From Acidimicrobiia bacterium (lineage in GTDB: Bacteria; Actinomycetota; Acidimicrobiia; Acidimicrobiales; VFJN01), in contig JBKHJZ010000001.1 in NCBI GenBank assembly GCA_046537875.1, forward strand, positions 16,253-80,252: a stretch of 64,000 bases of DNA. The letters are read 5' to 3'. A program made the position numbers and the translations under genes. Under the pieces are notes generated by a model. The model was not told the origin of the DNA. It did not search any database and saw nothing but the letters and a program-made list of their open reading frames with translations. Within the stretch, counting starts at the first letter, position 1. Every line of letters begins with the position of its first letter. This document shows, piece after piece, positions 2,652-62,106 of the stretch.

Positions 2652-3338
2652 TCAGCGGCGTGACCCGAGGACGTCCCGGCCGGCGCCGAGCGTGCGGTCG
2701 CCGGCGATGGGAACCGCGGGCTGGTCCCAGCGGTCGAGGTCGACCACGTCGCCGAGCGGGCGCCGGCGCACCGGGCCGTGCCTGCCGCGCGGCCAGCCCA
2801 CCACGACGTGGCCGGCGAGCAGCCAGTCGTCGGGGATGCCGACGGCCTCCCGGAGCAGCTGCTCGCCGCCGTAGGAGGCCCAGCTGGTGACGCAGGCGCC
2901 GAGGCCCTGGGCACGCGCGGCGAGCAGGAAGTTCTGCATCGCCGGGTAGATCGACCCGCCGAGGAGGACCTCGGAGGCGGTGTCGTAGCGGAAGGTGGCG
3001 AAGAGCACGGAGGTCCGGTCGCCCGCACGGTCGTGGAGCTCGTAGGTGGCGCGGTTGTTGCGTGCCCGCCGGCTCCGGTCGTCGTCGCCGGGCCGGGTCA
3101 TCCCGTAGACGGGTTCGATCACCTCGAGGGCGCGGCGGGCCGCTTCGGCGACGGCGGCGCGCTGCTCGGGTGAGCGCAGCACGATGAAGCGCCAGGCCTG
3201 GGCGTTGGCGCCGTTCGGCGCCCAGGTCGCCGCCTCCAGGCAGCGCCGCAGGGTGGCGTCGTCGACCGGTTCGTCGGTGAACCGGCGGATGGTCCGGGCC
3301 GTGGACAGTACGTCCCAGACGTCGTTGGACGGCGGCAT
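2652..3338 (-). CDS. Nitroreductase family protein
   Basis: 228-aa ORF. N-terminal RTIRRFTDEPV and APNGANAQAWRF motifs typical of the FMN nitroreductase fold. It starts 9 nt downstream of the P450 stop, so the same operon is likely. Confidence 0.8.
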   Translation of the reverse strand: MPPSNDVWDVLSTARTIRRFTDEPVDDATLRRCLEAATWAPNGANAQAWRFIVLRSPEQRAAVAEAARRALEVIEPVYGMTRPGDDDRSRRARNNRATYELHDRAGDRTSVLFATFRYDTASEVLLGGSIYPAMQNFLLAARAQGLGACVTSWASYGGEQLLREAVGIPDDWLLAGHVVVGWPRGRHGPVRRRPLGDVVDLDRWDQPAVPIAGDRTLGAGRDVLGSRR

Positions 3339-3347
3339 GAGCGGCGG

Positions 3348-4547
3348 TCAGCGGATGATCAGCGGGAGGCTCTCCCAGCCGCGGACCGTCGAGGTCGGGG
3401 CGAGGCGGCTGCCCTCGTCGTCGACGTCCCACTCCGGGAACCGGTCGAGGAGCTCCTCGAGCGCGACCCGGCCCTCGAGGCGCGCGAGGTTGGCACCCAG
3501 GCAGAAGTGCAGCCCGTACCCGAAGGTCAGGTGCTGGCTGTCAGCACGGGTGACGTCGTAGGCGTCGGGGGCCTCGTAGCGGCGGGGGTCGCGGTTGGCC
3601 GACGCCAGCAGGAGGAGGATGGCGGTGCCGGCGGGGATCGTGGTGCCGTGGTACTCGACGTCGTGCATGACGTAGCGGGCGACGGCGTGGCCGGTGGGCT
3701 CGAAGCGCAGCGTCTCCTCGATGGCGTTGGGGATCAGCGACCGGTCGTCGAGCAGGACTCGCCGCTGGTCGGGGTGCTCGGCCAGCAGCTTGGCGAGCCA
3801 GCCGATGAGCCGGCCGGTGGTCTCGTTGCCGGCACCCGCGAGCACGGCCGTGTAGGTGAGCACCTCGCCGCGGGTGAGCTTGCGGATCTCGCCGTCCCGG
3901 TCCTCGAACTCGGCGTTGAGGAGGTGGGTCATGAGGTCGTCGGAGGGGTGCCGGGCCCGCCAGTCGATGTAGTCGGCGAACATGGCGCCGCTGGCGACCT
4001 CGTCCTGCCTGACGGCCATGGGCTGGCCGGGCTCGGTGCGGAGGTTGGCGTCGGTCTTGTCGCGGACGGCGATCTGGTCCTCCTCGGGGATGCCGAGGAG
4101 CATGCCGATCACCCGCATGGGCAGGATCGAGGCGAAGTCGCTGATGATGTCGAAGCGGTCGGCACCGACGAGCGGGTCGAGGCAGCGGACGCAGAAGTCG
4201 CGGATCTGGTCCTCGAGGGCGGCCATCCGCCGGGGGGTGAAGACCCGGGACATGAGCCCGCGGTGCATCGTGTGCACCGGTGGGTCCTCGAAGAGGATCA
4301 CCCCGGGCGGGAGCTCGACGCCGGATTTGATGATGTCGAGGATGTCGCTGCGGGTGTTCGAGAACGTCTTCCAGTCGACGAGCGCCTGCTGGACGTCCTC
4401 GTGGCGCGAGAGCGCCCAGAAGTCGTACCGCTCGTTGTGGTAGGCCGGTGCCTCCTCCCGCAGGAGGGCGTACACGGGGTACGGGTCGGCGTTGATCTCG
4501 ACGTCGTACGGGTCGTAGTAGACGTCCGTGGCGTTGGCGATCGTCAT
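3348..4547 (-). CDS. Cytochrome P450 (paralog 1)
   Basis: 399 aa. AGNETT I-helix motif, EETLRFE (ExxR), and heme-ligand loop FGYGLHFCLGANLAR. RBS GAGGAGGG lies upstream. Confidence 0.9.
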   Translation of the reverse strand: MTIANATDVYYDPYDVEINADPYPVYALLREEAPAYHNERYDFWALSRHEDVQQALVDWKTFSNTRSDILDIIKSGVELPPGVILFEDPPVHTMHRGLMSRVFTPRRMAALEDQIRDFCVRCLDPLVGADRFDIISDFASILPMRVIGMLLGIPEEDQIAVRDKTDANLRTEPGQPMAVRQDEVASGAMFADYIDWRARHPSDDLMTHLLNAEFEDRDGEIRKLTRGEVLTYTAVLAGAGNETTGRLIGWLAKLLAEHPDQRRVLLDDRSLIPNAIEETLRFEPTGHAVARYVMHDVEYHGTTIPAGTAILLLLASANRDPRRYEAPDAYDVTRADSQHLTFGYGLHFCLGANLARLEGRVALEELLDRFPEWDVDDEGSRLAPTSTVRGWESLPLIIR

Positions 4548-4573
4548 CCGGGCCCCCTCCTCACCGATCCTGG

Positions 4574-4591
4574 TTTGAACGACCGTTCTAA
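4574..4591. promoter_or_regulatory. Candidate operator: imperfect palindrome TTTGAACGACCGTTCTAA just upstream of P450 paralog 1
   Basis: Half-sites TTGAAC and GTTCTA are separated by 4 nt, about 27 nt upstream of the P450 start. The site sits in an unusually long (110-nt) spacer inside an otherwise tight operon. Confidence 0.3.
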
Positions 4592-4658
4592 CTGGGCTGT
4601 GGTGGGGCGTCCAGGGTGGGGACGTGGTGCTGCGGGAGAGAGCGTGCCTGCCACCACA

Positions 4659-5783
4659 TCAGAACGACTCGTACTCGACGACGACCCGGCGGCCGTGGGG
4701 GAGGGCCTGGCAGGTGAGCACCCAACCCTCGTCGACCTCCTCGGGCGTGAGAGCCTTGTTGGTGCGCATCGTGACGGAGCCCTCGTGGAGGAGGGCCATG
4801 CACGTGGCGCAGTCGCCGGCCTGGCAGGAGAACGGAGCCCGGAGGCCGCCGGCCCGGGCGGTCTGCAGGAGCGTGTCACCGGCGTGGTAGGCGACGTCGT
4901 GGCGCTGGCCCTTGAGGACGATGGTCACGGTCTCCGTGGCGTCGGGCTCGTCGCCGCCGCCGGGCGCCGCCTGGACGGACATGCCGGGTGCCGGGGACGG
5001 CTCCTCGGCTCGCGGGCCGGTCCGGTCGCCGAAGCGCTCGAGGAAGATGCGGTCCGTCGGGACCCCGGCGTCGAGCAGCGTGCGCTCGACCAGGTCCATG
5101 AACTCCGCCGGCCCGCACACGAAGAACAGCGCACCCTCGCCCGACGTCTCGGCGACGTCGCGGACCTCGTCCGGGGTCAGGTAGCCGCCGTCGCTGTCCA
5201 GGTGGTGGTGCACCGAGAGCTGCCCCGGGTGCTCGTGCCGGAGCCGGTCGAGGTCGTCCCGGAAGATCACCGCATCGGCGTCGCGGTTCGCGTACAGCAC
5301 CCGCACCGGCCGGTCGGACGACGCGAGGACGCTCTTGGTGATCGACATCACCGGCGTCACGCCGCTGCCCCCGCAGAACGCCACGACCGGCGCGTCGCCC
5401 TCGGGCACGCAGAACACGCCCGCCGGCCGGGTCGCCTCGAGCTCGTCGCCCGGTGCGACGTTGTCGAGGAGCCAGTTCGACACCACGCCGCCGGGGACCC
5501 GCTTGACGGTGACGGTCAGCGCCGGGTCGGTCTCCGGGGCGCTCGACATGGAGTAGGAGCGGAGCAGCTCCTCGCCGTCGAGGTGGACGCGGAAGGTGCA
5601 GAACTGGCCGGGCCGGTAGGCGAACAGGTTCCGGGCATCGGCGGGCACGTCGAGGACGAACGAGGACGTGTCGGCGGTCTCCCGCACGACCTCGCGGACG
5701 CGCAGCGGGTGGTACCCGTGGAGCCGTCGCACCTCGTCTCGGTCGGCCACGACGGCCACGCTACCCGCGCCGAGAAGCACCAA
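4659..5783 (-). CDS. Ferredoxin reductase with C-terminal plant-type 2Fe-2S domain (PDR / KshB / PaaE architecture)
   Basis: RSYSMSS flavin-binding motif, GGSGVTP NAD(P)-binding motif, and C-terminal CQAGDCATC...LTCQA 2Fe-2S cysteines. It lies directly upstream of the P450 on the same strand. Confidence 0.85.
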   Translation of the reverse strand: MVLLGAGSVAVVADRDEVRRLHGYHPLRVREVVRETADTSSFVLDVPADARNLFAYRPGQFCTFRVHLDGEELLRSYSMSSAPETDPALTVTVKRVPGGVVSNWLLDNVAPGDELEATRPAGVFCVPEGDAPVVAFCGGSGVTPVMSITKSVLASSDRPVRVLYANRDADAVIFRDDLDRLRHEHPGQLSVHHHLDSDGGYLTPDEVRDVAETSGEGALFFVCGPAEFMDLVERTLLDAGVPTDRIFLERFGDRTGPRAEEPSPAPGMSVQAAPGGGDEPDATETVTIVLKGQRHDVAYHAGDTLLQTARAGGLRAPFSCQAGDCATCMALLHEGSVTMRTNKALTPEEVDEGWVLTCQALPHGRRVVVEYESF

Positions 5784-5876: not shown

Positions 5877-7055
5877 ATGACCGACGCCGTGATCGTCTCC
5901 ACCGCGAGGACGCCCATCGGCACGGCGGGGCGCGGGTCGCTGGTCGACGTCGACGCCCTCGAGCTCGGCACCCTCGCGCTGACCGAGGCCCTGGCGCGCG
6001 CCGGGGTCGACCCGTCGCTCGTCGACGACGTCGTCTTCGGCGAGTCGCTCTACGGCGGCGGCGACATCGCCCGGTACGCGGCCGTGCAGGCCGGCATGCC
6101 CCAGGTGCCCGGCGTGGCCCACAACCGGCACTGCGCCTCGGGCCTCGCCGCCGTCCAGACCGCCGCCGGCTCGATCCGCTCGGGCATGGACACGCTGGTG
6201 GTGGCCGGCGGGGTGCAGTCGAGCTCGACCATGCCCCGCACCACGCGCCGGGTGCCGGGGACCGACGAGTGGACCGACTGGTTCTCGCCGACCCACCCGG
6301 ACTCGCCCGAGGCGCCCAACATGGACATGTCCATCACGGTGGGGTGGAACGCCGCGACGAAGGCCGGGGTCACCCGTGAGGAGATGGACGCCTGGGCGCT
6401 GCGGTCGCACCGGCGCGCCGTGGCCTCCATCGACGACGGGCGTTTCCGGGACGAGGTCTTCCCCGTGGCGGTCACCCGGCGCGACGGCACGACCACCACC
6501 TTCGCCGTCGACGAGCACCCGCGTCGCGACACGAGCATGGAGAAGCTCGCCTCGCTGAAGCCCCTGCACCCGGAGATCGAGGGCTTCAGCATCACCGCCG
6601 GCAACGCCGCGGGCGCCAACGACGGCGCAGCGGCCATGGTCATCGCCTCCGATGCGCTCGCCGGCGAGCTGGGGTTGACGTCCCTGGCGTCGGTGCGGGG
6701 CTGGGCGTCGGTGGGCGTGCCGCCGGAGGACACCGGCCTGGCCCCGACCATCGCCATCCCGAAGGCGCTCGACCGGGTCGGCCTCCGGATCGACGACATC
6801 GACCTGTGGGAGATCAACGAGGCCTTCGCCTCCATGTGCGTCGCCACCACCCGGATCCTCGGCATCGACGAGGAGCTGGTGAACGTGCAGGGCAGCGGCT
6901 GCAGCCTCGGACACCCCGTCGCCATGACCGGCGCCCGCATGGTCATCTCCCTCGTGCACGAGCTCCGCCGCCGAGGCGGCGGCACCGGTGTCGCCGCCAT
7001 GTGCGCCGGCGGCGGCATGTCGTCGGCGGTCGTGCTCGACGTCCCGGCCGCCTGA
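5877..7055 (+). CDS. Acetyl-CoA C-acyltransferase (thiolase, catalytically complete)
   Basis: ATG at 5877 is preceded by GGGAGG. Nucleophile motif HCASGL, NVQGSGCSLGHPVAMTG and CAGGGM C-terminal motifs are present. Confidence 0.9.
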   Translation: MTDAVIVSTARTPIGTAGRGSLVDVDALELGTLALTEALARAGVDPSLVDDVVFGESLYGGGDIARYAAVQAGMPQVPGVAHNRHCASGLAAVQTAAGSIRSGMDTLVVAGGVQSSSTMPRTTRRVPGTDEWTDWFSPTHPDSPEAPNMDMSITVGWNAATKAGVTREEMDAWALRSHRRAVASIDDGRFRDEVFPVAVTRRDGTTTTFAVDEHPRRDTSMEKLASLKPLHPEIEGFSITAGNAAGANDGAAAMVIASDALAGELGLTSLASVRGWASVGVPPEDTGLAPTIAIPKALDRVGLRIDDIDLWEINEAFASMCVATTRILGIDEELVNVQGSGCSLGHPVAMTGARMVISLVHELRRRGGGTGVAAMCAGGGMSSAVVLDVPAA

Positions 7056-7068: not shown

Positions 7069-8205
7069 ATGGACACCGCCGGGTTCCGGGACGCGCTGTC
7101 GGGCTGGCTCGAGTCGGCCGGGCTGCCACCGCCCATCGTGGACCCCGGCACGCTCGACGAGCAGGTGAGCCGCTACTTCACCGTGAAGCAGGCCCTGTGG
7201 GACGCCGACTTCGGGCGCTACGGGTGGCCCGAGGCCGTGGGCGGGCTCGGCGGCCCCCCGCTGCTGCGCGCGGTGGTCGGTGAGGAGGTGGCGGCCCGCC
7301 GGCTGGCCGACCCCAACTGCTGGTCGATGATCGAGGTCCTCGCCCCCACCGTCATCGACGTCGCCGGCCCGGAGCTGGCGGCCGAGGTGGTCCCGCCCCT
7401 GTTGCGGGGGGAGGAGCTCTGGTGCCAGGGCTTCTCGGAACCGGGCGCCGGCAGCGACCTCGCCTCGCTCACCTGCCGGGCCACCGAGACCGACGGCGGC
7501 TGGGTGGTCAACGGCCAGAAGGTGTGGACCAGCTTCGCCCAGTACGCCCGGCGGTGCGTCCTCCTCACCCGCACGGGTGCGCCGGGCAGTGCCCACCGCG
7601 GGATCACCGCCTTCCTCGTCGACATGAACAGCCCGGGCATCACCCACGCCCCGATCGAGACCCAGCACGGCCGGCCCGAGTTCGCCGAGGTGTTCTTCGA
7701 CGACGTGGTCGTGCCGGGCCATCGGGTGCTCGGCGGGGTCGGCCAGGGCTGGCAGGTGGCCATGGACATCCTGCCCTACGAGCGGTCCACCACGTTCTGG
7801 CACCGTGGCGCCCACCTGCTCCGACGCTGCGGCGACCTCGTGGCCGAAGTCTCCGCCGGCGGCGAGGCACCGCCGTCCGCCGCCGACGCGCTGGGCGCCG
7901 CGTACCAGGCCCTCGTCGCGTTCCGCATGCGCTCCCGGGGCACCCAGCACCGGCTGGCGGCGGGCGAGCGGCTCGGCGCCGAGACCTCCGTCGACAAGGT
8001 GCTGATCGCCACCGCCGAGCAGACGCTGCTCGAGACGGCCCGGGACCTCCTGCCCGGCGTGATCGAGCTCGACGACGACCCCGGGGCGGCGTCGTGGCGC
8101 GAGGACTACCTGTATGCGAAGGCCGCGACGATCTACGGAGGCACCGGCGAGATCCAGCGCAACATCATCGCCCGCCGGCTCCTCGACCTCGGGGCGGAGG
8201 CATGA
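7069..8205 (+). CDS. Acyl-CoA dehydrogenase, alpha-type subunit of pair 1
   Basis: ATG at 7069 follows GAGGAG. WCQGFSEPGAGSDLAS motif and C-terminal YGGTGEIQRNIIARRLL are present. Confidence 0.85.
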   Translation: MDTAGFRDALSGWLESAGLPPPIVDPGTLDEQVSRYFTVKQALWDADFGRYGWPEAVGGLGGPPLLRAVVGEEVAARRLADPNCWSMIEVLAPTVIDVAGPELAAEVVPPLLRGEELWCQGFSEPGAGSDLASLTCRATETDGGWVVNGQKVWTSFAQYARRCVLLTRTGAPGSAHRGITAFLVDMNSPGITHAPIETQHGRPEFAEVFFDDVVVPGHRVLGGVGQGWQVAMDILPYERSTTFWHRGAHLLRRCGDLVAEVSAGGEAPPSAADALGAAYQALVAFRMRSRGTQHRLAAGERLGAETSVDKVLIATAEQTLLETARDLLPGVIELDDDPGAASWREDYLYAKAATIYGGTGEIQRNIIARRLLDLGAEA

Positions 8206-9179
8206 CGGCCATCGACGCCGACGACCTGGCGATGCTGGCCGCCGGCTTCGACGGCGTGCTCCGCGACGCGGCGGACCCCGACGAGGCAGCGCGGGGCCTG
8301 TTCGAGCTCGGGTGGGACGAGCTGCTCGCCGCCTCGCCGGCGCAGGCCGTCGCCGCCGCGTTCGGTGCCCTGGGGGCCACGGGCGCGGCCGCGGGGATCC
8401 TCGACGACGTCCTCGCCCACGCCCTCGGGCTGGACCCGTCGATCGGGACGTGCATCGTCGCGCCGGCCCCCGGGGGCTCGACGCCACCCGGTCGCCGCAC
8501 CGGCGACCGCATCGTCGTCGACGGCACCGTGACGAGGCGCGCCGGGCGGGCCGAACGCATCATGGTGGTCGTGGGCGACGTCCCCGACGACGTGGAGGTC
8601 GTCGGGATCGACGCCTCACTCGTGGCCGTTCCCGACGGGGACACCATCGACCCCGAGGACGCGCACCGGCGGCTCAGGCTCGAGCTGCCGGCGGCCGATG
8701 CCACCCCGGTCGTCGCCACCGGCCGCTGGGGCGATGCGGTCGCCGCAGCTCGGGTGGCGCTCGCCCACCAGCTGCTCGGCGCCGCCCGCACCATGCTGGC
8801 CCAGGCTCGCGAGCACGCCCTCGACCGCGTGCAGTTCGGGCGGGCCATCGCGTCGTTCCAGGCCGTCCGGCACAAGCTGGCCGACGCGCTGGTGCAGATC
8901 GAGGGCGGGGCCGCCGTCGCCGGCGAGTGGCAGCCCGGCACCGACCCCCTGCTCGCCGCCCTGGCCAAGTCCCTCGCCGGCCGGGCCGCACGGACCACGG
9001 CGACCCACGCGCAGCAGGTCCTCGCGGGCATCGGCTTCACGACCGACCACCCGTTCCACCGCTGGCTGAAGCGGACCCTCGTGGTCGACGCCCTCTTCGG
9101 CTCCGCCAGCACGCTCCCCGGCGAGATCGGCGCCGAGCTGCTCGCACGGGGCGGCGCGCCCCGCCTGGTCGAGCTGTGA
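8202..9179 (+). CDS. Acyl-CoA dehydrogenase-fold protein, beta-type subunit of pair 1 (C-terminal catalytic motif lost)
   Basis: ATGA overlap with the upstream ACAD at 8202-8205. 325 aa. It keeps QFGRAIASFQAVRHKLAD, but the region that aligns to GGTxEIQRN reads FGSASTLPGEIGAELL. Confidence 0.75.
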   Translation: MTAIDADDLAMLAAGFDGVLRDAADPDEAARGLFELGWDELLAASPAQAVAAAFGALGATGAAAGILDDVLAHALGLDPSIGTCIVAPAPGGSTPPGRRTGDRIVVDGTVTRRAGRAERIMVVVGDVPDDVEVVGIDASLVAVPDGDTIDPEDAHRRLRLELPAADATPVVATGRWGDAVAAARVALAHQLLGAARTMLAQAREHALDRVQFGRAIASFQAVRHKLADALVQIEGGAAVAGEWQPGTDPLLAALAKSLAGRAARTTATHAQQVLAGIGFTTDHPFHRWLKRTLVVDALFGSASTLPGEIGAELLARGGAPRLVEL

Positions 9180-27295: not shown

Positions 27296-27317
27296 CCGAC
27301 CGCGAACGGAGGGGGAC

Positions 27318-49862: not shown

Positions 49863-49904
49863 GGGTGCTCCTCCAGTCGAGCCGGTGGCCGGACGCTAGA
49901 AGGA

Positions 49905-51228: not shown

Positions 51229-51236
51229 GGGATCGG

Positions 51237-52145: not shown

Positions 52146-52164
52146 CGGCGTCTCCTGGCTCGGT

Positions 52165-52226: not shown

Positions 52227-52230
52227 CAGC

Positions 52231-52246
52231 TGACTCTACTGTCAGA
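52231..52246. promoter_or_regulatory. Operator-like site TGACTCTACTGTCAGA (TGAC-N6-GTCA)
   Basis: It sits in the 132-bp divergent gap between the hydratase/double-TetR operon and the small-ORF/ligase operon. It is the partner of the site at 49905. Confidence 0.4.
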
Positions 52247-54086: not shown

Positions 54087-55358
54087 CTAGAAGACGCCGA
54101 TCCCGGCGGCCTCGTTGCGTGCCTTCCACTCGGCGCGGGTCATGCGGGTGGTGTCCACGTCGGTGGCCCGGGACCGCAGCGCGCCGACCGTGGCGTCCTC
54201 CCTGGCGGTGTGCCGGAACGGGTCCCAGTCGAAGAACCGGCAGGCGTTCTCCCACGTGATCCTGTGGATCTCGTCGTCGGTGCAGCCGGCGGCCTGGAGC
54301 TCGTTCCAGGAGAACTCGGGCGACTCCGGCCACGTCGTGTCGGTGTGCGGGTAGTCGCACTCCCAGGCGATGATGTCCATGCCGATGCGGTGGCGCAGCT
54401 CGAGCCCGGACGGGTCGGTGATGTAGCACGCCAGGAAGTGGTCGCGGAAGACCTCCGACGGGAGCTTGCCGCCGAACTCGTCGCCGCCGTGCAGCCAGGT
54501 CTGGTTGGTCCAGTGGCGGTCGATGCGGTCGAGGTAGAAGGGCACCCAGCCGATGCCCCCCTCCGACAGCGCCACCCGGAGGTCCGGGAACTTCTGGAAC
54601 ACGCCGCCGAACAGCAGGTCCTGGGCGGTGATGGCCGCGATCTGGGTGGCCAGCACCATGAGGTGGTCGATCGGCGCCTCGGCGGGCCGGCGGATGACCT
54701 CGAACCCGGCGCCGATGTGCAGCGAGAGCACCATGTTCTCGTCGCAGATCGCCTTCAGCATCGGGTCCCAGTGGCCGGACAGGAAGCTCGGCAGGCCGTA
54801 CACGTGGGGCGTCTCGAGGAAGCTGATCGACCGGCAGCCCTTCCGGCCGATGCGGTGGATCTCCTCGGCGGCGAGCTCCGGGTCCCAGTTCGGCACCATG
54901 CCGAGCGGGATGAAGCGCCCGGGGTACTCGGCGCACCACTCGTCGAGGACCCAGTCGTTGTAGCCCCGGAGCATGACGTGGGCGATCTCCTTGTCCTCGC
55001 CCTCGTTGAAGGTGCGGGCGCTGTAGCCGGCCATGGTGGGGAAGTTCATCGACGCGAGCACGCCGTTGGCGTCCATGTCCCGCACGCGCTGGTGCACGTC
55101 GAAGCAGCCGGGCCGCAGCTCCTGGTACGAGCCGGGGTTGAAGCCCCACTCCTCGCGGGGCCAGCCCACGGTGGCGGCCATGCCGAACGGGGTGGAGGTT
55201 GCGGAGCCCTGGAAGTGCCACTCGTCGACGCCCTTGTCGTTGCGCACGACCTTCGGCATGTCGGCCTTCCACTTCTCCGGCACGTGGTTCTCGAACAGGT
55301 TCGGCGGCTCGATCATGTGGTCGTCGATGCTGACCAGGATCATGTCGTCCATCTGCAT
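54087..55358 (-). CDS. Amidohydrolase-2 (PF04909-like) family protein, paralog C
   Basis: VSIDDHMIEP N-terminal motif and WECDYPHTDT C-terminal motif. It starts 16 nt after the P450 stop. Confidence 0.8.
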   Translation of the reverse strand: MQMDDMILVSIDDHMIEPPNLFENHVPEKWKADMPKVVRNDKGVDEWHFQGSATSTPFGMAATVGWPREEWGFNPGSYQELRPGCFDVHQRVRDMDANGVLASMNFPTMAGYSARTFNEGEDKEIAHVMLRGYNDWVLDEWCAEYPGRFIPLGMVPNWDPELAAEEIHRIGRKGCRSISFLETPHVYGLPSFLSGHWDPMLKAICDENMVLSLHIGAGFEVIRRPAEAPIDHLMVLATQIAAITAQDLLFGGVFQKFPDLRVALSEGGIGWVPFYLDRIDRHWTNQTWLHGGDEFGGKLPSEVFRDHFLACYITDPSGLELRHRIGMDIIAWECDYPHTDTTWPESPEFSWNELQAAGCTDDEIHRITWENACRFFDWDPFRHTAREDATVGALRSRATDVDTTRMTRAEWKARNEAAGIGVF

Positions 55359-56577: not shown

Positions 56578-56892
56578 GATCCGGCCAGCCCGTCGATCGC
56601 CCGCGTGCGGAGCGGGTTCGGGCGCTGGGCCCGGTCGGTGGGCCACGCCGTGTCGACGAGCGGCGCGTCGACGGGCTCCGGGGTCGTGCCCTGGACGGTC
56701 GGTGTGTCGGTCACCCGGTTCCCCCCTCTGGTCCCTTCAGCGGCCGCGGTCGGCTCGCGACGTGACCGTACAACAGCCGCGCCCGTGCGTGCTGACCGAA
56801 CCGTTAGAAAGCGTTACAGTCCGCGCCATGCCTCGCACGTGGGCCCCTCGGCGCCGGGTCGAGGACGTCCACGCAGTCCTGAGGGGGGACCG

Positions 56893-58110
56893 ATGACCGC
56901 CATCCTGAACGGCGTCCGCATCCTCGAGGTCGCCGAGCACACCTTCGTGCCGGCCGCCTCGGCAGTCCTGGCCGACCTCGGTGCCGAGGTGGTCAAGATC
57001 GAGCACGTCGAGCGCGGCGACGCCATGCGCGGCCTCGCGTCCACCGGGGTGGCCGCCGTGCCCATGGATGTCCACGCGCTGCTCGAGCACTCGAACCGGG
57101 GGAAGAAGAGCCTGGCGCTCGACCTCACCGATCCCGAGGGGCTCGAGATCCTCGGCAAGCTGGCGGCCACGTCCGACGTGTTCCTCACCAACAAGCTGCC
57201 CAGCATCCGGACAAAGCTGAAGATCGACGTGCCCGACATCCGGGCGCACAACCCGGACATCGTCTACGTCCGGGGCACGGGCCAGGGCGAGCGCGGTCCC
57301 GACGCCGACAAGGGCTCCTACGACTCGCTGGCGTTCTGGGCCCGGGCGGGTGTCGCCATCGGCGCCAGGCGACCCGAGTACGACCTGCTGCCCGTGCCGC
57401 CGGCGCCCGGCTTCGGCGACTCCATCGGCGCCATGACCATCGCCGGGGGGATCATGGGGGCGCTGTTCCACCGCGAGCGCACCGGCGAGGCCACCGAGGT
57501 CGATGTCTCGCTCCTCGGCACCGGCCTCTGGTCGATGGGCCAGGCCATGGCCCTGTCGCTCGTGCTCGGCATGCCCTGGCAGGCGCCGCCGGCCGACCGC
57601 ATGGGCGGGAACCCGCTCACCGGCAACTACACGACCAAGGACGGGCGGCACGTCGCCCTCACCTGCCTCCAGGCGGCGAAGTACTGGCCGACGCTGTGCG
57701 ACGCCATCGGCCGACCCGACCTCAGGGACGACCCCCGGTTCGCCGACCAGGCGTCCCTTCTGGAGCACAACGAGGAGGCCACCGCGCTCCTCACCGAGGC
57801 CTTCGCCTCCGCCACGGCCGACGAGTGGCGGGCGCGGCTGGCCGACTTCGACGGCCAGTGGACCATGGTCCAGGACACCCTCGAGGCGGCCGAGGACCCG
57901 CAGACGGTGGCCAACGGCTACCTGCAGGAGTGCGAGACCGCCGCCGGGAAGCCGTTCAAGCTCGTCGCGGTGCCGGTCCAGTACGACGGCCAACCGGCCC
58001 GGCCCGCCCGTGCCCCCGAGTTCAACGAGCACGGCGATGCGATCCTCGCCGAGCTGGGCCTCGACTGGGACGCGATCGTCGACCTCAAGGTCCGCGGCAT
58101 CACCGCCTGA
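56893..58110 (+). CDS. Type III (CaiB/BaiF-family) CoA-transferase
   Basis: ATG follows GAGGGGGG. GVRILEVAEHTFVPAASAVLADLGAEVVKIE N-terminal signature, and a GDSIG region with the conserved Asp. Confidence 0.9.
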   Translation: MTAILNGVRILEVAEHTFVPAASAVLADLGAEVVKIEHVERGDAMRGLASTGVAAVPMDVHALLEHSNRGKKSLALDLTDPEGLEILGKLAATSDVFLTNKLPSIRTKLKIDVPDIRAHNPDIVYVRGTGQGERGPDADKGSYDSLAFWARAGVAIGARRPEYDLLPVPPAPGFGDSIGAMTIAGGIMGALFHRERTGEATEVDVSLLGTGLWSMGQAMALSLVLGMPWQAPPADRMGGNPLTGNYTTKDGRHVALTCLQAAKYWPTLCDAIGRPDLRDDPRFADQASLLEHNEEATALLTEAFASATADEWRARLADFDGQWTMVQDTLEAAEDPQTVANGYLQECETAAGKPFKLVAVPVQYDGQPARPARAPEFNEHGDAILAELGLDWDAIVDLKVRGITA

Positions 58111-58136
58111 GCCCACAACACCACAGGAGACCCACC

Positions 58137-58967
58137 ATGTCGCTGTTCGATGCCTTCCGGTTCGACGGCAAGCGCGTGCTCGTCGTCGGCGGCGCCACCG
58201 GGATGGGCGCCGCCGCCGCCGAGCTGGCGCTCGACGCCGGGGCCGAGGTCGTGGTCATGGACCACGCCGACGTCACCCTGGACGGGGTGAAGGCCGTCAA
58301 GCTCAACCTGGCCGAGCGGGGCTCGATCGACGCCGCGCTCGGCGATGTCGGCGGCCCCGTCCACGCCCTCCTCGCCTGCGCCGGCGTCGCCGACGGCACG
58401 CCGGGACTCGAGCGCATCAACTTCATCGGCCACCGCTACCTGATCGAGACGATGCTCGAGGCCGGCAACCTGCCGCGCGGCTCGGCCATCGGCTTCATCT
58501 CCTCGGCGGCCGGGCTCGGCTGGGAGTCGAACCTGGAGAAGATCACGGAGGTGCTGGCCATCTCCGACTGGGACGAGGCCGTCGCCTGGTGCCAGGAGAA
58601 CGGCTACGCCGACTACTTCCACACCAAGCAGATCATCTGCGCCTACGTGGCCAGCAGGGCGCACGAGCTGATCAAGCAGGGGGTCCGCATCAACGCCATC
58701 TGCCCCGGGCCCACGGAGACGCCGCTGGCCAGGGCCAACGCCGAGATGTGGCTCGGCTTCGGTGCCGACTGGCGTGAGGAGGTGGGCATCGACGCCTCGA
58801 CGCCGCTCGAGCAGGCCTACCCGCTGCTGTTCCTGTGCAGCGAGGCCGCCCGGGCGATCAACGGCATCACGCTGATCACCGACGAGGGCTACATGATGGC
58901 CGGCCTCACCAACGCCTACGAGCCGGCCCGCGACGCCGCCCGGTTCCTCATGGGTCGCCTGTCCTGA
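58137..58967 (+). CDS. SDR-family oxidoreductase (atypical, coniferyl-alcohol / 3-alpha-HSD-like subgroup)
   Basis: ATG follows AGGAGA. VVGGATGMG glycine motif, a YFHTKQ putative Tyr/Lys, and ICPGPTETPL. Confidence 0.75.
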   Translation: MSLFDAFRFDGKRVLVVGGATGMGAAAAELALDAGAEVVVMDHADVTLDGVKAVKLNLAERGSIDAALGDVGGPVHALLACAGVADGTPGLERINFIGHRYLIETMLEAGNLPRGSAIGFISSAAGLGWESNLEKITEVLAISDWDEAVAWCQENGYADYFHTKQIICAYVASRAHELIKQGVRINAICPGPTETPLARANAEMWLGFGADWREEVGIDASTPLEQAYPLLFLCSEAARAINGITLITDEGYMMAGLTNAYEPARDAARFLMGRLS

Positions 58968-58970
58968 TCG

Positions 58971-60590
58971 ATGCGTCTGCTCCCGCAACTGACCCCGGAG
59001 AACGAGTGGTTCTGGACCTCGGGCGCCGACGGGCGCCTGCGCGTCCAGGGCTGCCGTGACTGCTCGACGCTCGTGCACCCACCCGCTCCGGTCTGCCCGG
59101 CCTGCCGGAGCAGCAGCCGGGAGCCGACGCCGGTCTCCGGGCGGGCGACCGTGGCGGGCTACACGGTCAACTCGCACCCGTGGATCCCCGGGTTCGACCC
59201 GCCATACGTCATCGCGGTCGTGGCGCTGGAGGAATCGCCCGACGTCCGGCTGACCACGAACATCGTCGGCTGCGACCCCGACGACGTGCACATCGGCCAG
59301 GAGGTCGCGGTGCGGTTCGAGGAGCACGACGGCGTGTTCCTCCCGCTGTTCGAGCCGACCGGGGCGACCCACGAGAACCCGGTTCCCGAGCCGAAGCTGC
59401 CGGCGCCCCGGCCCGCGGCGAGCACCGACCGGTTCGAGCACCGGGCCGTGCTCTCGGGCATCGGCCGCTCGGCGATCGGCCGCCGGCTCATGGTCGACCC
59501 GCTGTCGCTCACCGTCGACGCCTGCCTCGCGGCCATCGACGACGCCGGCCTGCGGCCCGACGACATCGACGGCCTGTCGACCTACCCGGGCGCGGTGGGG
59601 ATGGGCATGAGCGAGGGCGGCGTCACCGCCGTGGAGGAGGCGCTGCGCCTCCATCCCACGTGGATCAACGGCGGCATGGACATCCCCGGGCCGGGCGGCG
59701 CGGTGATGAATGCCATGCTCGCCGTGTCGGCGGGCCTGTGCCGCCACGTCCTGTGCTTCCGGACGGTGTGGGAGACCACCTTCGCTGCCCGCGGCGGCAC
59801 GGGTGCCACGGGCGGCGGCGGAGGGCCGGACTGGATGCAGTGGCGCCTGCCGTTCGGCGCGGCGTCGGCGGCGACCTGGATCGGCATGAACGCCAACCAG
59901 TACCTGCACCGCTACGGCGCCACCCGGGAGCTGTTCGGGCGCATCGCCGTGAACGCCCGCGCCAACGCCGGCCGGAACCCGCTGGCGATCTACCGCGAGC
60001 CGATGACGATGGACGACTACTTCGGCGCCCGGCCCATCACGAGCCCCTTCGGGCTCTACGACTGCGACGTGCCCTGCGATGCGTCGATCGCCGTCATCGT
60101 GTCCGCGGCCGACGTCGCCGACGACCTGCCGCAGCCGGCGGTGCACGTCGAGGCGGTCGGCACGCAGGTCCTCGAGCGGATCTCGTGGGACCAGGGCACG
60201 CTCACCCACGAACCGCAGGTTCTCGGCCAGTCCGCCCACCTCTGGACCCGCACCGACCTCCGCCCGGACGACGTCGACGTGGCCCTGCTCTACGACGGCT
60301 TCACCTTCAACTGCGTGAGCTGGCTCGAGGGCCTCGGCTTCTGCGGCCTCGGCGAGGCGAAGGACTTCGTCGGCGACGGCAGCCGCATCGCCCTCGACGG
60401 TGAGCTGCCGCTGAACCCCCACGGGGGGCAGCTGTCCGAGGGTCGCACCCACGGCTTCGGGTTCGTCCACGAGGCCGTGCTCCAGCTGCGCCACGCGGCC
60501 GGGGAGCGCCAGGTGGCCGACGCGTCCACCGCCGTGGTGGCCACCGGCGGTGGCACGCCCTCCGGCGTGATGCTGCTGCGGAGCGCGTGA
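58971..60590 (+). CDS. Fusion protein: N-terminal DUF35 (zinc-ribbon + OB-fold) and C-terminal SCP-x/Ltp-type thiolase-like domain lacking the thiolase catalytic residues
   Basis: CRDCSTLVHPPAPVCPAC zinc ribbon plus OB-fold (~aa 1-125). The thiolase-like part has NPHGGQLSEGRTHGFG, but GPGG sits where the nucleophile C(A/S)SG is expected, and ATGGG where the C-terminal CxGGG is expected. Confidence 0.8.
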   Translation: MRLLPQLTPENEWFWTSGADGRLRVQGCRDCSTLVHPPAPVCPACRSSSREPTPVSGRATVAGYTVNSHPWIPGFDPPYVIAVVALEESPDVRLTTNIVGCDPDDVHIGQEVAVRFEEHDGVFLPLFEPTGATHENPVPEPKLPAPRPAASTDRFEHRAVLSGIGRSAIGRRLMVDPLSLTVDACLAAIDDAGLRPDDIDGLSTYPGAVGMGMSEGGVTAVEEALRLHPTWINGGMDIPGPGGAVMNAMLAVSAGLCRHVLCFRTVWETTFAARGGTGATGGGGGPDWMQWRLPFGAASAATWIGMNANQYLHRYGATRELFGRIAVNARANAGRNPLAIYREPMTMDDYFGARPITSPFGLYDCDVPCDASIAVIVSAADVADDLPQPAVHVEAVGTQVLERISWDQGTLTHEPQVLGQSAHLWTRTDLRPDDVDVALLYDGFTFNCVSWLEGLGFCGLGEAKDFVGDGSRIALDGELPLNPHGGQLSEGRTHGFGFVHEAVLQLRHAAGERQVADASTAVVATGGGTPSGVMLLRSA

Positions 60591-60648
60591 CCGGTCGTCG
60601 TCGACCCGGCGGGGCGGGGGATCGCACATCACGAAGGGGGGAGCTCAG

Positions 60649-62106
60649 GTGGACGACCAGACCACCATCGTCCAGCGCATCGCGACGCTGGCCCGGGAAC
60701 AGGCCGACACGGTGGCGTTCACGCACGTCGGCGAGGACGGCGCCGAGCGCACGCTCCGCTGGGCCGAGCTCGACCGGTGGTCCGGCCAGCTCGCCGGCGA
60801 GCTCGCCGCGCGTGGCCTGGGGCACGGGCGGCGACTGGCCGTCGGGCTGCGCAACTCGCCGGAGCTCGTGTGTGCCGCCGTGGCCGCGTGGAAGCTGGGC
60901 GCCACCCCCGTCCCCGTCCGCTGGGACCTGCCGGCGTGGGAGCTGGAGCGGGTGCTCGACGTGATCGACCCGGCGGTCGCGCTGCGCGACGAGGACCTGT
61001 GCTGGATCGCCGCGACCACCGAGCGACCGGTGCCCGAGCTGCCCGACGTGCTCGCACCCCACCTGCAGGGCATCTGCAGCAGCGGCTCGACCGGCACGCC
61101 GAAGATCATCCTCAGCTCCGTGCCGGCGGTGTTCCACCCGATCTACTCGACGCCGATGGCGGAGCAGTGGCGGCCGGTCCCGAGGCCGCAGACCGTGCTC
61201 GTCCTGGCGCCGATGTACCACATCAACGCCTTCGCCACGCTGCAGAACATGCTGTCCGGCGACCGGCTCGTCGTCCTCGAGAGGTTCGACGCCGCACGCG
61301 CGGTGGACGCCATCGAGCGGCACCGGGCGACGACGTTCACCGCGACGCCGACCATGCTCCAGCGCATCGCCGACCTCCCCGGCCTCCACGCCCGGGACCT
61401 CAGCAGCCTGGTGTGGGTGCTGCAGGGCGCCGCACCGATGCCGCCGTCGCTCGCCCGGCGGTGGATCGAGCTGATCGGCGCGGACAAGCTGTACATGGCC
61501 TACGGGATGACCGAGGCCATCGGCATCACGGCGCTCGACGGCGAGGAGTGGCTGGCCCACGAGGGGAGCGTCGGGCGTGGGCAGCGCGGCACCGAGATCC
61601 GGGTGCTCGGCGAGGACGGGGCCGATCTCCCACCTGGTGACGTGGGCGAGATCTTCATGCGCGCCCCGGCCTACGGCGGCTCCACCTACCTCGGCGAGGC
61701 ACCGCGGCTGCGGACCACGGACGACGGCTTCGCGAGCGTCGGCGACATGGGCCATCTCGACGACGACGGCTACCTGTACGTCGTCGACCGGCGCGTCGAT
61801 CTCATCGTCACCGGCGGTGCCAACGTCTTCCCCGCCGAGGTCGAGGCCGCGCTGATCGACCACCCGAAGGCCGCGGACGTGGTCGTCATCGGCCTGCGCG
61901 ACCCCGAGTGGGGGCGGCGCGTGCACGCGATCATCGAGCCCGCCACGCGGGACGACCCGCCCACGCTCGACGAGGTGCGCGCCTACGCGAGGTCCCGCCT
62001 CGCCGCCTACAAGATCCCGAAGAGCGTCGAGATCGTCGAGGCGATGCCGCGCAGCGCCGCCACCAAGGTCAACCGCGGACGGCTGGTCGCAGAGCGCGGC
62101 GGCTGA
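60649..62106 (+). CDS. AMP-dependent acyl-CoA ligase (short form)
   Basis: GTG follows GGGGGGA. SSGSTGTPK, YGMTE, VGDMG and ATKVNR motifs. Confidence 0.85.
   Translation: MDDQTTIVQRIATLAREQADTVAFTHVGEDGAERTLRWAELDRWSGQLAGELAARGLGHGRRLAVGLRNSPELVCAAVAAWKLGATPVPVRWDLPAWELERVLDVIDPAVALRDEDLCWIAATTERPVPELPDVLAPHLQGICSSGSTGTPKIILSSVPAVFHPIYSTPMAEQWRPVPRPQTVLVLAPMYHINAFATLQNMLSGDRLVVLERFDAARAVDAIERHRATTFTATPTMLQRIADLPGLHARDLSSLVWVLQGAAPMPPSLARRWIELIGADKLYMAYGMTEAIGITALDGEEWLAHEGSVGRGQRGTEIRVLGEDGADLPPGDVGEIFMRAPAYGGSTYLGEAPRLRTTDDGFASVGDMGHLDDDGYLYVVDRRVDLIVTGGANVFPAEVEAALIDHPKAADVVVIGLRDPEWGRRVHAIIEPATRDDPPTLDEVRAYARSRLAAYKIPKSVEIVEAMPRSAATKVNRGRLVAERGG

Follow-up and report, generated by a model that had tools for sequence, protein, structure and literature searches.

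The question raised by positions 2652–62106 of a stretch of DNA from an uncultured soil Acidimicrobiia bacterium (assembly GCA_046537875.1, contig JBKHJZ010000001.1) is which compounds its closely spaced oxygenase and beta-oxidation genes serve to break down. The whole stretch of 64,000 nucleotides that was analysed is referred to here as the window, and the genes between these positions as the island. A preliminary description had likened the island to sterol or bile-acid side-chain degradation, remarked that the genes for the steroid core were missing, and raised the possibility of a pathway for a different polycyclic or branched lipid. Judged from sequence and by analogy, the region may be a mosaic island for the coenzyme A (CoA)-dependent catabolism of polycyclic terpenoid acids with quaternary carbons, and not of the steroid nucleus, a reading to which we give an even chance. 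To our knowledge, the bacterial breakdown of saturated polycyclic terpenoids such as resin acids, labdanoids, and hopanoid-like skeletons is largely unknown, and the Acidimicrobiia are an abundant but almost uncultured group.

Genes were called from a third-position GC (GC3) frame plot, as the raw list of open reading frames was dominated by spurious frames because of the GC content of 70–77% throughout the window. Independent gene calls on Logan contigs of the same organism (2.5–10 kb) agreed with the GC3 calls where such contigs were present. All 56 proteins were then scanned with Pfam for domain content, compared with the NCBIfam cut-offs for equivalogs, and searched against the PDB for solved relatives. 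This analysis resulted in 56 genes in the window, 51 of which (g4–g54) lie inside the island with short gaps between them. The island encodes eight acyl-CoA dehydrogenases (ACADs), six AMP-ligases (g10, g16, g18, g33, g48, and g54), two crotonases, one thiolase, five short-chain dehydrogenases/reductases (SDRs), and four TetR regulators (g15, g17, g34, and g45, the last with two TetR domains). Eight oxygenases were counted, comprising three predicted amidohydrolase-related dinuclear oxygenases (AROs), two cytochromes P450, a Rieske enzyme, a Baeyer-Villiger monooxygenase (BVMO), and a TauD-type enzyme, in addition to an F420-dependent luciferase-like monooxygenase-family (LLM) protein. Pfam and PDB matches bore out the classes that had been listed before (ACAD pairs, P450s, ligases, BVMO, Rieske/NTF2 pair, F420-LLM, cyclase-fold protein, kinase/ACAD10-type pair, TauD, and GH3). 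An NCBIfam cut-off was passed only by the LLM g42 (TIGR03560) and, for a generic ligase subfamily, by g33 (NF004837); the matches of the ACADs, reductase, kinase, AROs, cyclase-fold protein, Rieske enzyme, and BVMO all fell below. The GC content is uniform, without compositional breaks, and there is thus no sign of a recent acquisition of the island; Rfam, tRNA, and tandem-repeat scans of the window found no RNA genes, mobile-element hallmarks, or transposases.

Predicted dinuclear oxygenases and the steroid question

The evidence on the substrate class comes first from three proteins of the PF04909 family, which the preliminary description had called DxH-type amidohydrolases.

13869–15089, plus strand: g13, predicted ARO (PF04909) and anchor of module 2 (see below), with DNH at residue 13 and DYPHPE at residue 353
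39733–40977, minus strand: g36, predicted PtmU3-like ARO of the conserved core (see below), with DGH at residue 11 and DYPHAE at residue 368; present at 55 of 65 loci
54087–55358, minus strand: g49, predicted ARO and close DitZ homologue, with DDH at residue 12 and DYPHTD at residue 335

PtmU3, DitZ, AibH2, and SfbO are AROs, a group whose signature consists of an N-terminal D-x-H and a C-terminal D-x-P-H-x-D/E motif, the latter being absent from PF04909 hydrolases and decarboxylases (PMC13154177). All three proteins match PF04909 (6.9e-23 for g13, 2.1e-19 for g36, and 1.3e-33 for g49) and carry both motifs, and in the g36 orthologues of related loci the C-terminal motif is kept in 56 of 56 and the N-terminal motif likewise. 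The match of g49 to DitZ (PDB 8uyr_A) has an E-value of 3.6e-144 and 485 bits and pairs its residues 1–416 with residues 1–419 of 423; the best solved relatives of g36 are PtmU3 (1.2e-36) and DitZ, and g13 matches an uncharacterised mycobacterial structure, 4dzi (5e-87). The D-x-H motif is thus there as described, but the two ARO motifs together with the PtmU3 and DitZ matches indicate that g13, g36, and g49 are predicted dinuclear metal oxygenases of the PtmU3/DitZ family without a hydrolase role. Characterised members of this family hydroxylate diterpenoids. Plant terpenoid acids are therefore favoured over steroids as substrates, which lends partial support to the idea of a different polycyclic or branched lipid. 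The AROs are annotated at the source as "amidohydrolase" or "metal-dependent hydrolase", and more than 6000 relatives of g49 bear amidohydrolase or hydrolase names or none, so that an oxygenase layer of soil carbon cycling may have been misread.

The 56 window proteins were likewise examined for enzymes of the steroid nucleus. No KstD-type FAD_binding_2 protein, KshA_C domain, HsaC extradiol/glyoxalase protein, HsaD alpha/beta hydrolase, HsaB flavin reductase, or HsaA-type enzyme was found among them, and the Rieske protein g40 carries Ring_hydroxyl_A, not the KshA catalytic domain. The KstR box TnnAACnnGTTnnA has no exact match in the window and four one-mismatch matches where 1.8 are expected, which is chance level, and the KstR2 box AnCAAGnnCTTGnT has no match with up to one mismatch allowed. 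One of the one-mismatch KstR sites, at 56805–56818 in the g50/g51 gap, was rejected as it is not symmetric and such sites occur at chance frequency. The earlier statements that KstD-, KshA-, and HsaA–D-typical genes and canonical KstR and KstR2 boxes are missing from the window were thus confirmed. The reductase g6, previously termed KshB-type, has the domain order of both PaaE and KshB, but its best NCBIfam match is PaaE, below cut-off, so only the domain order speaks for that name.

A variant sterol or bile-acid pathway acting on the side chain, and maybe on the C and D rings, would have its KstD, KshA, HsaA–D, and KstR boxes elsewhere in the genome or in the approximately 17 kb of contig beyond the window. 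Such a pathway would account for the ACAD pairs, the DUF35-fused Ltp2-like protein g53, the P450s, the racemase-type CoA-transferase, the many ligases, the weak similarity of the TetR protein g34 to KstR2 (3e-11), and the BVMO g39, which matches steroid monooxygenase (about 1e-127) and PAMO about equally well. We regard it as highly unlikely, since, beyond the lack of nucleus genes and KstR or KstR2 boxes in the window, the NCBIfam models for IpdE2, CasG, and FadD3 score far below cut-off, the P450s are no nearer to CYP125/142 than to CYP107/130, g53 has YDGF plus Arg and no MaoC partner, the immediate flanks of the island are CoxS-like on the left and YkuD on the right, and the AROs point to diterpenoid-type chemistry. 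Assignment of the P450s to a family from PDB matches was also attempted and no inference was drawn, as CYP107, CYP130, Vdh, and a CYP125 ancestor are equally distant (about 1e-61 to 1e-65).

A conserved core, a second module, and their regulators

Which parts of the island belong together was examined through its relatives. The genes around the Rieske protein g40 include, in addition to the ARO g36 listed above:

38805–39698, minus strand: g35, SDR of the core; 55 of 65 loci
41081–42118, plus strand: g37, cyclase-fold protein (PF04199) of the core with the degenerate metal motif LQYSTQWDSLAH; 57 of 65 loci
42352–43878, plus strand: g38, CehA/McbA-like PHP metallohydrolase that carries a Tat signal; lineage-specific insertion within the core
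43883–45478, minus strand: g39, type I BVMO of the core; 54 of 65 loci
45584–46939, plus strand: g40, Rieske alpha subunit and core anchor, with C94-x-H...C-x2-H117 and H216-x4-H221
46936–47340, plus strand: g41, NTF2/SnoaL_4 protein of the core and probable beta subunit, translationally coupled to g40; 60 of 78 loci
47348–48175, minus strand: g42, F420-dependent LLM oxidoreductase that passes TIGR03560, a facultative core member; 26 of 73 loci

A scan of species-representative genomes with g40 resulted in at least 580 relatives, mostly from soil and peat Acidimicrobiales, and the best 80 loci were searched by tblastn with all 56 window proteins, the denominators given here being the loci with enough flank. 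Almost all of these 80 loci are from soil or peat metagenome-assembled genomes (MAGs) of Acidimicrobiales and Acidimicrobiaceae; the rest are from a few Mycobacteriales/Frankiaceae MAGs and one isolate, Aquihabitans sp. McL0605. The genes g35, g36, g37, and g39 are all present at 49 of 65 loci. Median identities of the core orthologues are 64–80%, and any non-core window gene occurs at no more than 12 loci. The ligase g33 and the TetR gene g34 stand beside the core at 12 of the 80 loci.

The catalytic motifs of the core enzymes were then inspected. In g40, the Rieske and iron motifs are intact (CRH...CPFH at residues 94–117 and H216-x4-H221, with Pfam matches to Rieske and Ring_hydroxyl_A), and its closest characterised Rieske relatives, HcaE, CntA, and GbcA, match the N-terminal half only. 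The coding sequence of g41 overlaps that of g40 by 4 nt, and the protein matches SnoaL_4 (2.6e-20) and, weakly, Ring_hydroxyl_B (3.9e-4). Type I BVMOs are recognised by the fingerprints FxGxxxHxxxW[P/D] and [A/G]GxWxxxx[F/Y]P[G/M]xxxD plus a Rossmann GxGxxG, and in g39 these are intact (FGGVQHHTGRWP at residue 149, GGTWFWNRYPGARFD at residue 34, and GAGITG at residue 5). Its PDB matches to PAMO (about 1e-131), OTEMO, and CHMO range from 1e-116 to 1e-131, with steroid monooxygenase at about 1e-127. In g37, residues 112–123 read LQYSTQWDSLAH in place of the kynurenine-formamidase metal motif HxGTHxDxPxH, and of the 59 sequences in the alignment (g37 and 58 orthologues), 56 show the same residues. 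Zinc-dependent hydrolysis may not be its function, and the one solved structure related to g37, 5ibz (2.5e-38), is uncharacterised. The inserted protein g38 scores 79 bits against the CehA/McbA family, whose cut-off is 80, and has the twin-arginine signal VPVRRRDLLRGG if read from the GTG at 42352. Neither g38 nor the GH3 glycosidase g31 has a counterpart in any of 160 related loci, and both look like unrelated passengers, so the earlier inclusion of GH3 in the island is not supported.

Among the core relatives, a class II aldolase is encoded at 43 loci, an ACAD at 42, and a fused E1 alpha-beta thiamine pyrophosphate (TPP) enzyme at 40 (L005, L026, L031, L073, and about 40 others). In the island studied here these partners are replaced by a ligase and a TetR gene. 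Genes for CMD, ABM, P450, or TauD proteins variably accompany the core in relatives. In five Mycobacteriales/Frankiaceae MAGs (L007, L010, L012, L014, and L020), Rieske proteins of approximately 70% identity occur without a BVMO, and at a 48% identity threshold at least L007 has the Rieske gene without any other core gene. As g40-like proteins occur without the BVMO in these MAGs, the Rieske component may be older or more mobile than the rest of the core. In Aquihabitans sp. McL0605 (L053), the core is present but the sampled flank contains no BVMO orthologue.

This distribution bears on the possibility that the core forms a pathway of its own for a small compound other than a terpenoid (an N-heterocycle, for instance, a quaternary amine, or a ketone of the alkyl or alicyclic type), its beta-oxidation neighbours being incidental. 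Most relatives do pair the core with the class II aldolase, the fused E1 TPP enzyme, CMD, ABM, and TauD instead of CoA ligases, the nearest characterised Rieske relatives are HcaE, CntA, and GbcA (over the N-terminal half only), and one g40 homologue is annotated as "glycine betaine catabolism A". However, the ARO of the core resembles PtmU3, 42 loci have an ACAD with the core and 12 a ligase together with a TetR of the acyl-CoA type, and four to five redox enzymes would be unusual for one small molecule, so we think this explanation unlikely.

A second set of genes, module 2, was defined by a metagenome scan anchored on the ARO g13, with counts taken over 17 loci of at least 12 kb. It begins with a P450 (g50-like, 75% identity) divergent from g13, continues with g16, g18, g19/g20, and g14, and often includes g29/g28. 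This module, with 8–10 syntenic genes, is present at 12–13 of the 17 long loci, g51/g52 adjoining it in 4–5 of them. As judged from this order, genes that lie 14–23 kb and 55–59 kb into the window are neighbours elsewhere. The closest module 2 relative, L086, has a g13 orthologue of 90% identity and shares only g13–g20, both of its flanks being different. At L003, where the Rieske protein is 82–83% identical, the order of g39–g53 is kept without g41, g42, and g50. Synteny is limited to 6–10 genes even in relatives with g40 or g13 orthologues of 83–92% identity. The 60 kb are thus not a conserved unit, and neither the boundaries of the island nor, beyond 6–10 genes, its gene order recur in relatives; what is conserved separately is the 6–7-gene core and the 8–10-gene module 2.

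The remaining genes recur beside these modules, but in shuffled order. Orthologues of 29 non-core window genes, with 55–87% identity, stand beside the core in varying combinations: g49, g30, and a P450 at L063 and L068; g53, g51, g13, and g44 at L044; g13, g52, g23, and g22 at L019; and g28, g29, g6, and g43 in Aquihabitans. Never found beside the core were g1, g31, g38, g55, and g56, which we judged to be unrelated, but also 15 other island genes. A similar toolkit surrounds ARO genes on plasmids of Streptomyces, Rhodococcus, Massilia, Caulobacter, Sphingopyxis, and Sphingobium. On the Streptomyces plasmid (NZ_CP108236), a thiolase gene (66% to g7) and an aldehyde dehydrogenase gene divergent from an ARO gene (61% to g36) are followed by genes for an LLM, an enoyl-CoA hydratase, a g47-like protein with a g48-like ligase, a kinase, and an SDR, and the stretch also encodes an ACAD (64% to g21), a CoA-transferase, a P450, a second ACAD, a second ligase, and a MaoC protein. 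The Massilia plasmid (NZ_CP019037) encodes an ACAD (63% to g21) with a kinase, a ligase, an Ltp protein, MaoC proteins, an enoyl-CoA hydratase, and an ARO (47% to g49) followed directly by a g53-like protein (51%), with a second ARO (47% to g13) divergent. On the Caulobacter plasmid (NZ_CP033873), the ARO gene adjoins those for a kinase, an ACAD, an SDR, and a TetR. Plasmid pDK3 of Rhodococcus DK17 carries genes for an aldehyde dehydrogenase, a ligase, a TetR, SDRs, an ARO, a P450, an enoyl-CoA hydratase, a DUF35 protein, and an ACAD, and the Sphingobium plasmid those for a Rieske alpha subunit (45% to g40), a TauD protein, more Rieske alpha subunits, an FAD oxidoreductase, and an ARO (41% to g49).

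Since such recurrent re-association is not expected for random neighbours, it argues that the modules serve related chemistry, without implying a single pathway. Pile-ups of lipid and xenobiotic operons are common in high-GC actinobacteria, and the island could be a chance accumulation of paralogous operons, each with its own substrate, in which only the small operons are functional units. The loss of gene order beyond 6–10 genes despite anchors that are 83–92% identical, the four TetR genes with several operator types, the evidently unrelated GH3 and CehA-like insertions, and the separate distribution of core and module 2 all fit this explanation. It remains doubtful to us, as an orthologous set with 55–87% identity re-associates around the core and the AROs, across phyla and on plasmids.

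Candidate operators were located in the intergenic gaps and are listed here with the regulator g34:

4573–4592, strand not applicable: palindrome GTTTGAACGACCGTTCTAAC, between g5 and g6
13656–13680, strand not applicable: palindrome TGTACTCTCTCG-c-CGCGAGAGTACA with 12-nt arms, g12/g13 divergent gap
16771–16781, strand not applicable: inverted repeat GAACCTCGTTC, g15/g16 gap; conserved in L086
38005–38021, plus strand: operator copy TGTACCGACCGGTCATC with three mismatches, g33/g34 gap
38066–38707, plus strand: g34, TetR of the TetR_C_24 type (Pfam, PDB), proposed core repressor
41041–41057, minus strand: exact operator TGTACCGATCGGTCTAC, g36/g37 divergent gap
45527–45543, plus strand: exact operator TGTACCGATCGGTCTAC, g39/g40 divergent gap
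52230–52245, strand not applicable: palindrome CTGAC-N6-GTCAG, g46/g47 divergent gap; conserved in L003

The 17-nt TGTACCGATCGGTCTAC has three sites in the window where 0.06 are expected, and in several distant relatives the Rieske gene is preceded by similar sites at a distance of 60–100 bp. The adjacent regulator g34 is distantly similar to KstR2, as noted above, and to other TetR structures, one of which is labelled a fatty acid metabolism regulator. We infer that g34 is the repressor of g33, g35–g36, g37(–g38), g39, and g40–g41. The palindrome CTGAC-N6-GTCAG precedes the operon to which the gene for the double TetR g45 belongs. The preliminary description had paired at least three palindromic motifs with the four TetR genes; four TetR genes were found and several operator types seem reasonable, of which one candidate is well supported and one or two moderately. 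Its proposal of at least three separately regulated modules is upheld as to modularity, both in regulation and in inheritance, since two or more conserved modules and no fewer than two types of operator were found.

Two further repeats were considered. The TCGGAC repeats in the g46/g47 gap were rejected as an operator in favour of the neighbouring CTGAC-N6-GTCAG palindrome, since they show no conservation in L003, where the palindrome is kept, and no enrichment over the window as a whole; the run, at 52160–52225, includes a 14-nt tandem unit of 2.5 copies at 52185–52219. Inverted repeats of the form GAAC-N2-5-GTTC occur 12 times in the window (examples are at 4577–4588, 16771–16781, 5622–5631, 44234–44243, and 55293–55302) against 1.6 in shuffled sequences, with only two being intergenic. 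This excess could be a codon-usage effect or reflect KstR-like half-sites with non-canonical spacing. The sequence GAACAGGTTC occurs three times, each time within a coding region.

A candidate route for terpenoid acids

Having considered which genes travel together, we examined the enzymes that could open a ring and shorten the freed chain. Two features are central:

23017–25415, plus strand: g21, ACAD11-like ACAD, and g22, APH-family kinase (Pfam, PDB)
58971–60590, plus strand: g53, DUF35 domain fused to an Ltp2-like thiolase-fold domain (Pfam, PDB)

The best PDB matches of g53 are TcLtp2 (6ok1_A, 1.4e-59, aligned over residues 8–387) and ChsH2-DUF35 (6ok1_B, 2.3e-22), here fused in one polypeptide, and the Cys4 ribbon of its DUF35 part is intact (C-x2-C...C-x2-C from residue 28). 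In Ltp2, catalysis depends on Tyr294 (base) and His296 (oxyanion hole) of the motif YDHF, plus Tyr344, and the corresponding motifs are YDCY in Sal and HDCF in SCP2 thiolases (PMC12329534). The island protein instead has YDGF at residue 441, keeping the Tyr with His replaced by Gly, and Arg492 at the position of Tyr344. YDGF and Arg are also kept in four complete g53 orthologues and in the Massilia plasmid homologue, which has 51% identity and no DUF35 fusion. This pattern would make g53 a distinct subfamily outside strict Ltp2, with a third active-site type beside Ltp2 and Sal. No MaoC hydratase domain, and hence no partner of the ChsH1-ChsH2 kind, was found among the 56 window proteins. A role as a retro-aldolase is plausible because the Tyr base is kept. 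Of the earlier label "Ltp2-like lyase", the similarity to TcLtp2 and DUF35 thus stands, while two of the three catalytic or oxyanion residues are absent.

Three ACAD pairs were found, each overlapping by 4 nt and each with one degenerate partner; further ACADs are g11 and g21. Within the pairs, g9 and g19 match only Acyl-CoA_dh_1, and g29 is without the middle domain. The best NCBIfam matches of the pairs are pimC_large, pimD_small, and IpdE2, all far below cut-off. The adjacent genes g21 and g22 match ACAD11 (8v3v, 2.6e-100) and 3dxp and 9o56 (about 1e-41), respectively. ACAD10/11 act by phosphorylation of 4-hydroxyacyl-CoAs followed by elimination of the phosphate (PMC12440821, PMC11342911), and g21/g22 are a candidate entry system for 4-hydroxyacyl-CoAs. 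An ACAD11-like ACAD and an APH kinase are encoded within 0–12 kb of AROs on three unrelated plasmids (Caulobacter, Massilia, and Streptomyces), with the pair standing directly beside the ARO only in Caulobacter. This suggests that g21/g22-type systems handle hydroxyacyl-CoAs made by the oxygenases, a link of which we found no earlier description in the literature.

The closest precedent for such a combination is the Ambrox/labdanoid route of Sphingomonas, in which a P450 oxidises the C4-methyl to an acid, the CoA ester is formed, C5-H is hydroxylated, and ring A is opened by a retro-aldol reaction, with beta-oxidation and a retro-Dieckmann ring opening at the end (PMC13599519). This 2026 study established the chemistry, but the C5 hydroxylase and the aldolase were not identified in it (PMC13599519). 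An equivalent hydroxylation in platensimycin biosynthesis is ascribed to PtmU3 in work that the study cites (cited in PMC13599519), and Pseudomonas abietaniphila forms and accumulates 5-hydroxy-dehydroabietic acid (PMC13063091).

In the route proposed for the island, the substrates would be carboxylic acids of the isoprenoid type with alicyclic rings or branches, for example diterpenoid acids with labdane, abietane, or kaurane-like skeletons or other quaternary-carbon terpenoids, processed as CoA thioesters. The P450s g5 and g50, with the reductase g6, the alcohol dehydrogenase g23, and the aldehyde dehydrogenase g12, would convert a methyl group to a carboxylate, and one of the six ligases would form the CoA ester. 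If ACAD-dependent beta-oxidation is blocked by a quaternary alpha-carbon, the neighbouring C-H would be hydroxylated directly by one of the AROs (g13, g36, or g49), and the thiolase-fold retro-aldolase g53 would open the ring at the resulting beta-hydroxyacyl-CoA. The freed chain could then be shortened by the ACAD pairs, crotonases, SDRs, the racemase-type CoA-transferase g51, and the thiolase g7, with 4-hydroxyacyl-CoAs admitted through the kinase g22 and the ACAD11-like g21. On the remaining saturated ring, the core would act by hydroxylation (g40/g41 or g36), oxidation to the ketone (g35), and insertion of oxygen (g39), and the ester would be opened by the cyclase-fold protein g37 or another enzyme. 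The core would be repressed by g34 through TGTACCGAyCGGTC, probably until an acyl-CoA ligand binds, and the other modules would have their own TetRs. Two parts of this proposal are put forward only tentatively: that the core is an undescribed ring-cleavage machine for saturated terpenoids with quaternary carbons, and that the ARO and YDGF pair g49/g53 represents the missing angular C-H hydroxylase and retro-aldolase.

Several observations weigh against a terpenoid pathway. DitZ-like genes with 77–81% identity occur in Actinomadura and Pseudofrankia in contexts without the rest of the toolkit, and a DitZ homologue alone is insufficient to define a diterpenoid pathway. The core and module 2 never occur together in 80 ARO-anchored loci, and a small substrate other than a terpenoid would also be compatible with the usual core partners (class II aldolase, fused E1, and ACAD). 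The protein g53 is without equivalents of His296 and Tyr344 of Ltp2. Adjacency of an ARO gene and a g53-type gene was seen in the window, at L003, and on the Massilia plasmid, but at only 1–2 loci of each set of 80; ARO-aldolase adjacency as a general rule was dropped to a hypothesis for that reason. As to the hallmark dit genes, no extradiol dioxygenase is encoded among the 56 window proteins, and no terpenoid-specific transporter or regulator is evident in the window.

The same enzymes could in principle belong to a biosynthetic tailoring cluster for a terpenoid natural product of the platensimycin type, for which the PtmU3-like ARO, a BVMO that is weakly PtlE-like, and the cyclase-fold protein might be cited. 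We give this hardly any credence, as the Pfam scan found no terpene synthase, prenyltransferase, polyketide synthase, nonribosomal peptide synthetase, or resistance or export gene in the window, and eight ACADs with six ligases argue for catabolism.

Should terpenoid acids prove to be the substrates, soil Acidimicrobiia would have a major role in the turnover of plant-terpenoid carbon, and a defined substrate class could aid the isolation of these bacteria. The island and its relatives would also provide clustered candidates for two unassigned steps, with the AROs for the C5-hydroxylase and the YDGF-type DUF35-thiolase-fold protein for the retro-aldolase, as well as a multi-oxygenase core that is conserved but uncharacterised and for which a repressor and an operator are predicted.

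The remaining features of the window are as follows:

1–426, plus strand: 3' end of a CoxS-type [2Fe-2S] subunit gene (Fer2_2), which looks unrelated to the island
2652–3338, minus strand: g4, nitroreductase-family protein (PF00881); an orthologue adjoins a g13-type ARO in L088
3348–4547, minus strand: g5, cytochrome P450 (Pfam); paralogue of g50, 59% identity
4659–5759, minus strand: g6, FNR-type reductase with a C-terminal 2Fe-2S ferredoxin domain (FAD_binding_6, NAD_binding_1, Fer2)
5877–7055, plus strand: g7, thiolase (Pfam); 66% homologue in the Streptomyces plasmid ARO cluster
7069–9179, plus strand: g8/g9, ACAD pair, alpha-like and degenerate beta-like, with a 4-nt coding overlap (Pfam, NCBIfam)
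9211–10866, plus strand: g10, acyl-CoA ligase (Pfam)
10863–12032, plus strand: g11, ACAD with all three domains (Pfam)
12092–13555, minus strand: g12, aldehyde dehydrogenase (Pfam), divergent from g13, a layout also seen on the Streptomyces plasmid
15173–15943, minus strand: g14, enoyl-CoA hydratase of module 2 (Pfam)
16008–16727, minus strand: g15, TetR (Pfam)
16901–18496, plus strand: g16, acyl-CoA ligase of module 2 (Pfam)
18504–19112, minus strand: g17, TetR (Pfam)
19191–22863, plus strand: g18, ligase, g19, ACAD beta-like, and g20, ACAD alpha-like, of module 2; the g19/g20 pair is at 20720–22863
25542–28361, plus strand: g23, Zn-alcohol dehydrogenase/quinone oxidoreductase, g24, SDR, and g25, DapB_N/DAP_DH_C-type dehydrogenase (Pfam)
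28417–32138, minus strand: g26 (69 aa), g27, DapB_N/DAP_DH_C-type dehydrogenase, and g28/g29, ACAD pair at 29872–32138
32339–33157, plus strand: g30, TauD/TfdA-family Fe/2-oxoglutarate dioxygenase (Pfam); orthologues with 76–78% identity are beside the core in L008, L063, and L068
33186–35375, minus strand: g31, GH3 glycosidase (Pfam), probable passenger
35510–36253, minus strand: g32, SDR (Pfam)
36400–37977, minus strand: g33, acyl-CoA ligase that passes NF004837, divergent from g34
48262–52145, minus strand: g43, acyl-CoA thioesterase II, g44, SDR, g45, double TetR, and g46, enoyl-CoA hydratase (Pfam); order kept in L003
52278–54079, plus strand: g47 (101 aa, no family) and g48, acyl-CoA ligase (Pfam); the pair is conserved on the Streptomyces plasmid with 49% and 56% identity
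55375–56577, minus strand: g50, cytochrome P450; a 75% orthologue is divergent from a g13-type ARO in relatives
56893–58967, plus strand: g51, family III CoA-transferase of the racemase type, and g52, SDR (Pfam)
60649–62106, plus strand: g54, acyl-CoA ligase at the right end of the island (Pfam)
62455–63899, minus strand: YkuD L,D-transpeptidase with a lipoprotein-like N-terminus and a 232-aa protein, which look unrelated to the island
63279–63402: 45-nt repeats within the gene for this 232-aa protein

The dehydrogenases g25 (27318–28361, plus strand) and g27 (28754–29812, minus strand) are paralogues with 38% mutual identity and are similar to 2,4-diaminopentanoate dehydrogenase. Orthologues of g27 are found beside the core in L008, L066, and L075, and those of g25 beside the core in L031 and beside a g13-type ARO in L088. 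A 44-nt tandem repeat at 36353–36445 (2.1 copies, 84% matches) crosses the stop codon of g33 into the downstream gap.

Comparison with known systems

As a system, the window belongs to none of the five closest known systems, each of which is matched in part. ACAD10/ACAD11 and LvaA/LvaC are resembled by the g21 dehydrogenase domain and the APH kinase g22, which would be a split form of the fused mammalian enzyme, the difference being that the genes are separate here.

The actinobacterial cholesterol and cholate side-chain systems (ChsE, ChsH1-ChsH2, Ltp2, FadD19, and Mcr) share with the island the ACAD pairs, the DUF35-associated aldolase candidate, the racemase-family CoA-transferase, the P450s, and a KstR2-like TetR (TetR_C_24). 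The pairing of adjacent genes with one degenerate subunit recalls the alpha2-beta2 ACADs ChsE, FadE26-27, IpdE1-E2, and PimCD. In contrast to these systems, the window has no nucleus genes, KstR or KstR2 boxes, or MaoC protein, the tertiary alcohol would come from an oxygenase, and g53 has YDGF plus Arg where Ltp2 has YDHF plus Tyr344.

The alicyclic ketone routes (chn, camphor OTEMO, and monoterpene ketone monooxygenase) resemble the core in combining a hydroxylase, an SDR, and a type I BVMO. They differ in that the core has, in place of an alpha/beta-hydrolase lactonase, a cyclase-fold protein whose metal motif is degenerate; two additional oxygenases and the F420 LLM are further differences.

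The dit-type clusters encode the DitA Rieske dioxygenase, the DitC extradiol dioxygenase, and the P450 DitQ. Those of Pseudomonas abietaniphila BKME-9 and Burkholderia xenovorans LB400 are likened to the island by the DitZ homologue g49, the P450s, the Rieske protein, the ligases, the SDRs, and a thiolase-fold protein. The regulators and gene order differ, however, and the island has a BVMO in place of an extradiol ring-cleavage dioxygenase, so the route would not pass through an aromatised C ring.

The last comparison is with the A-ring logic of PtmU3 and the Ambrox route. The genes are unclustered in the Ambrox Sphingomonas, whereas here they are clustered and actinobacterial; the match of g36 to PtmU3 is only about 1e-36, and the Rieske/BVMO core has no counterpart in the Ambrox/PtmU3 scheme. 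All of the postulated enzyme classes are nonetheless encoded, including the PtmU3-like g36 and two further AROs, and because every class needed is present in recurring linkage, we lean towards an Ambrox-type scheme.

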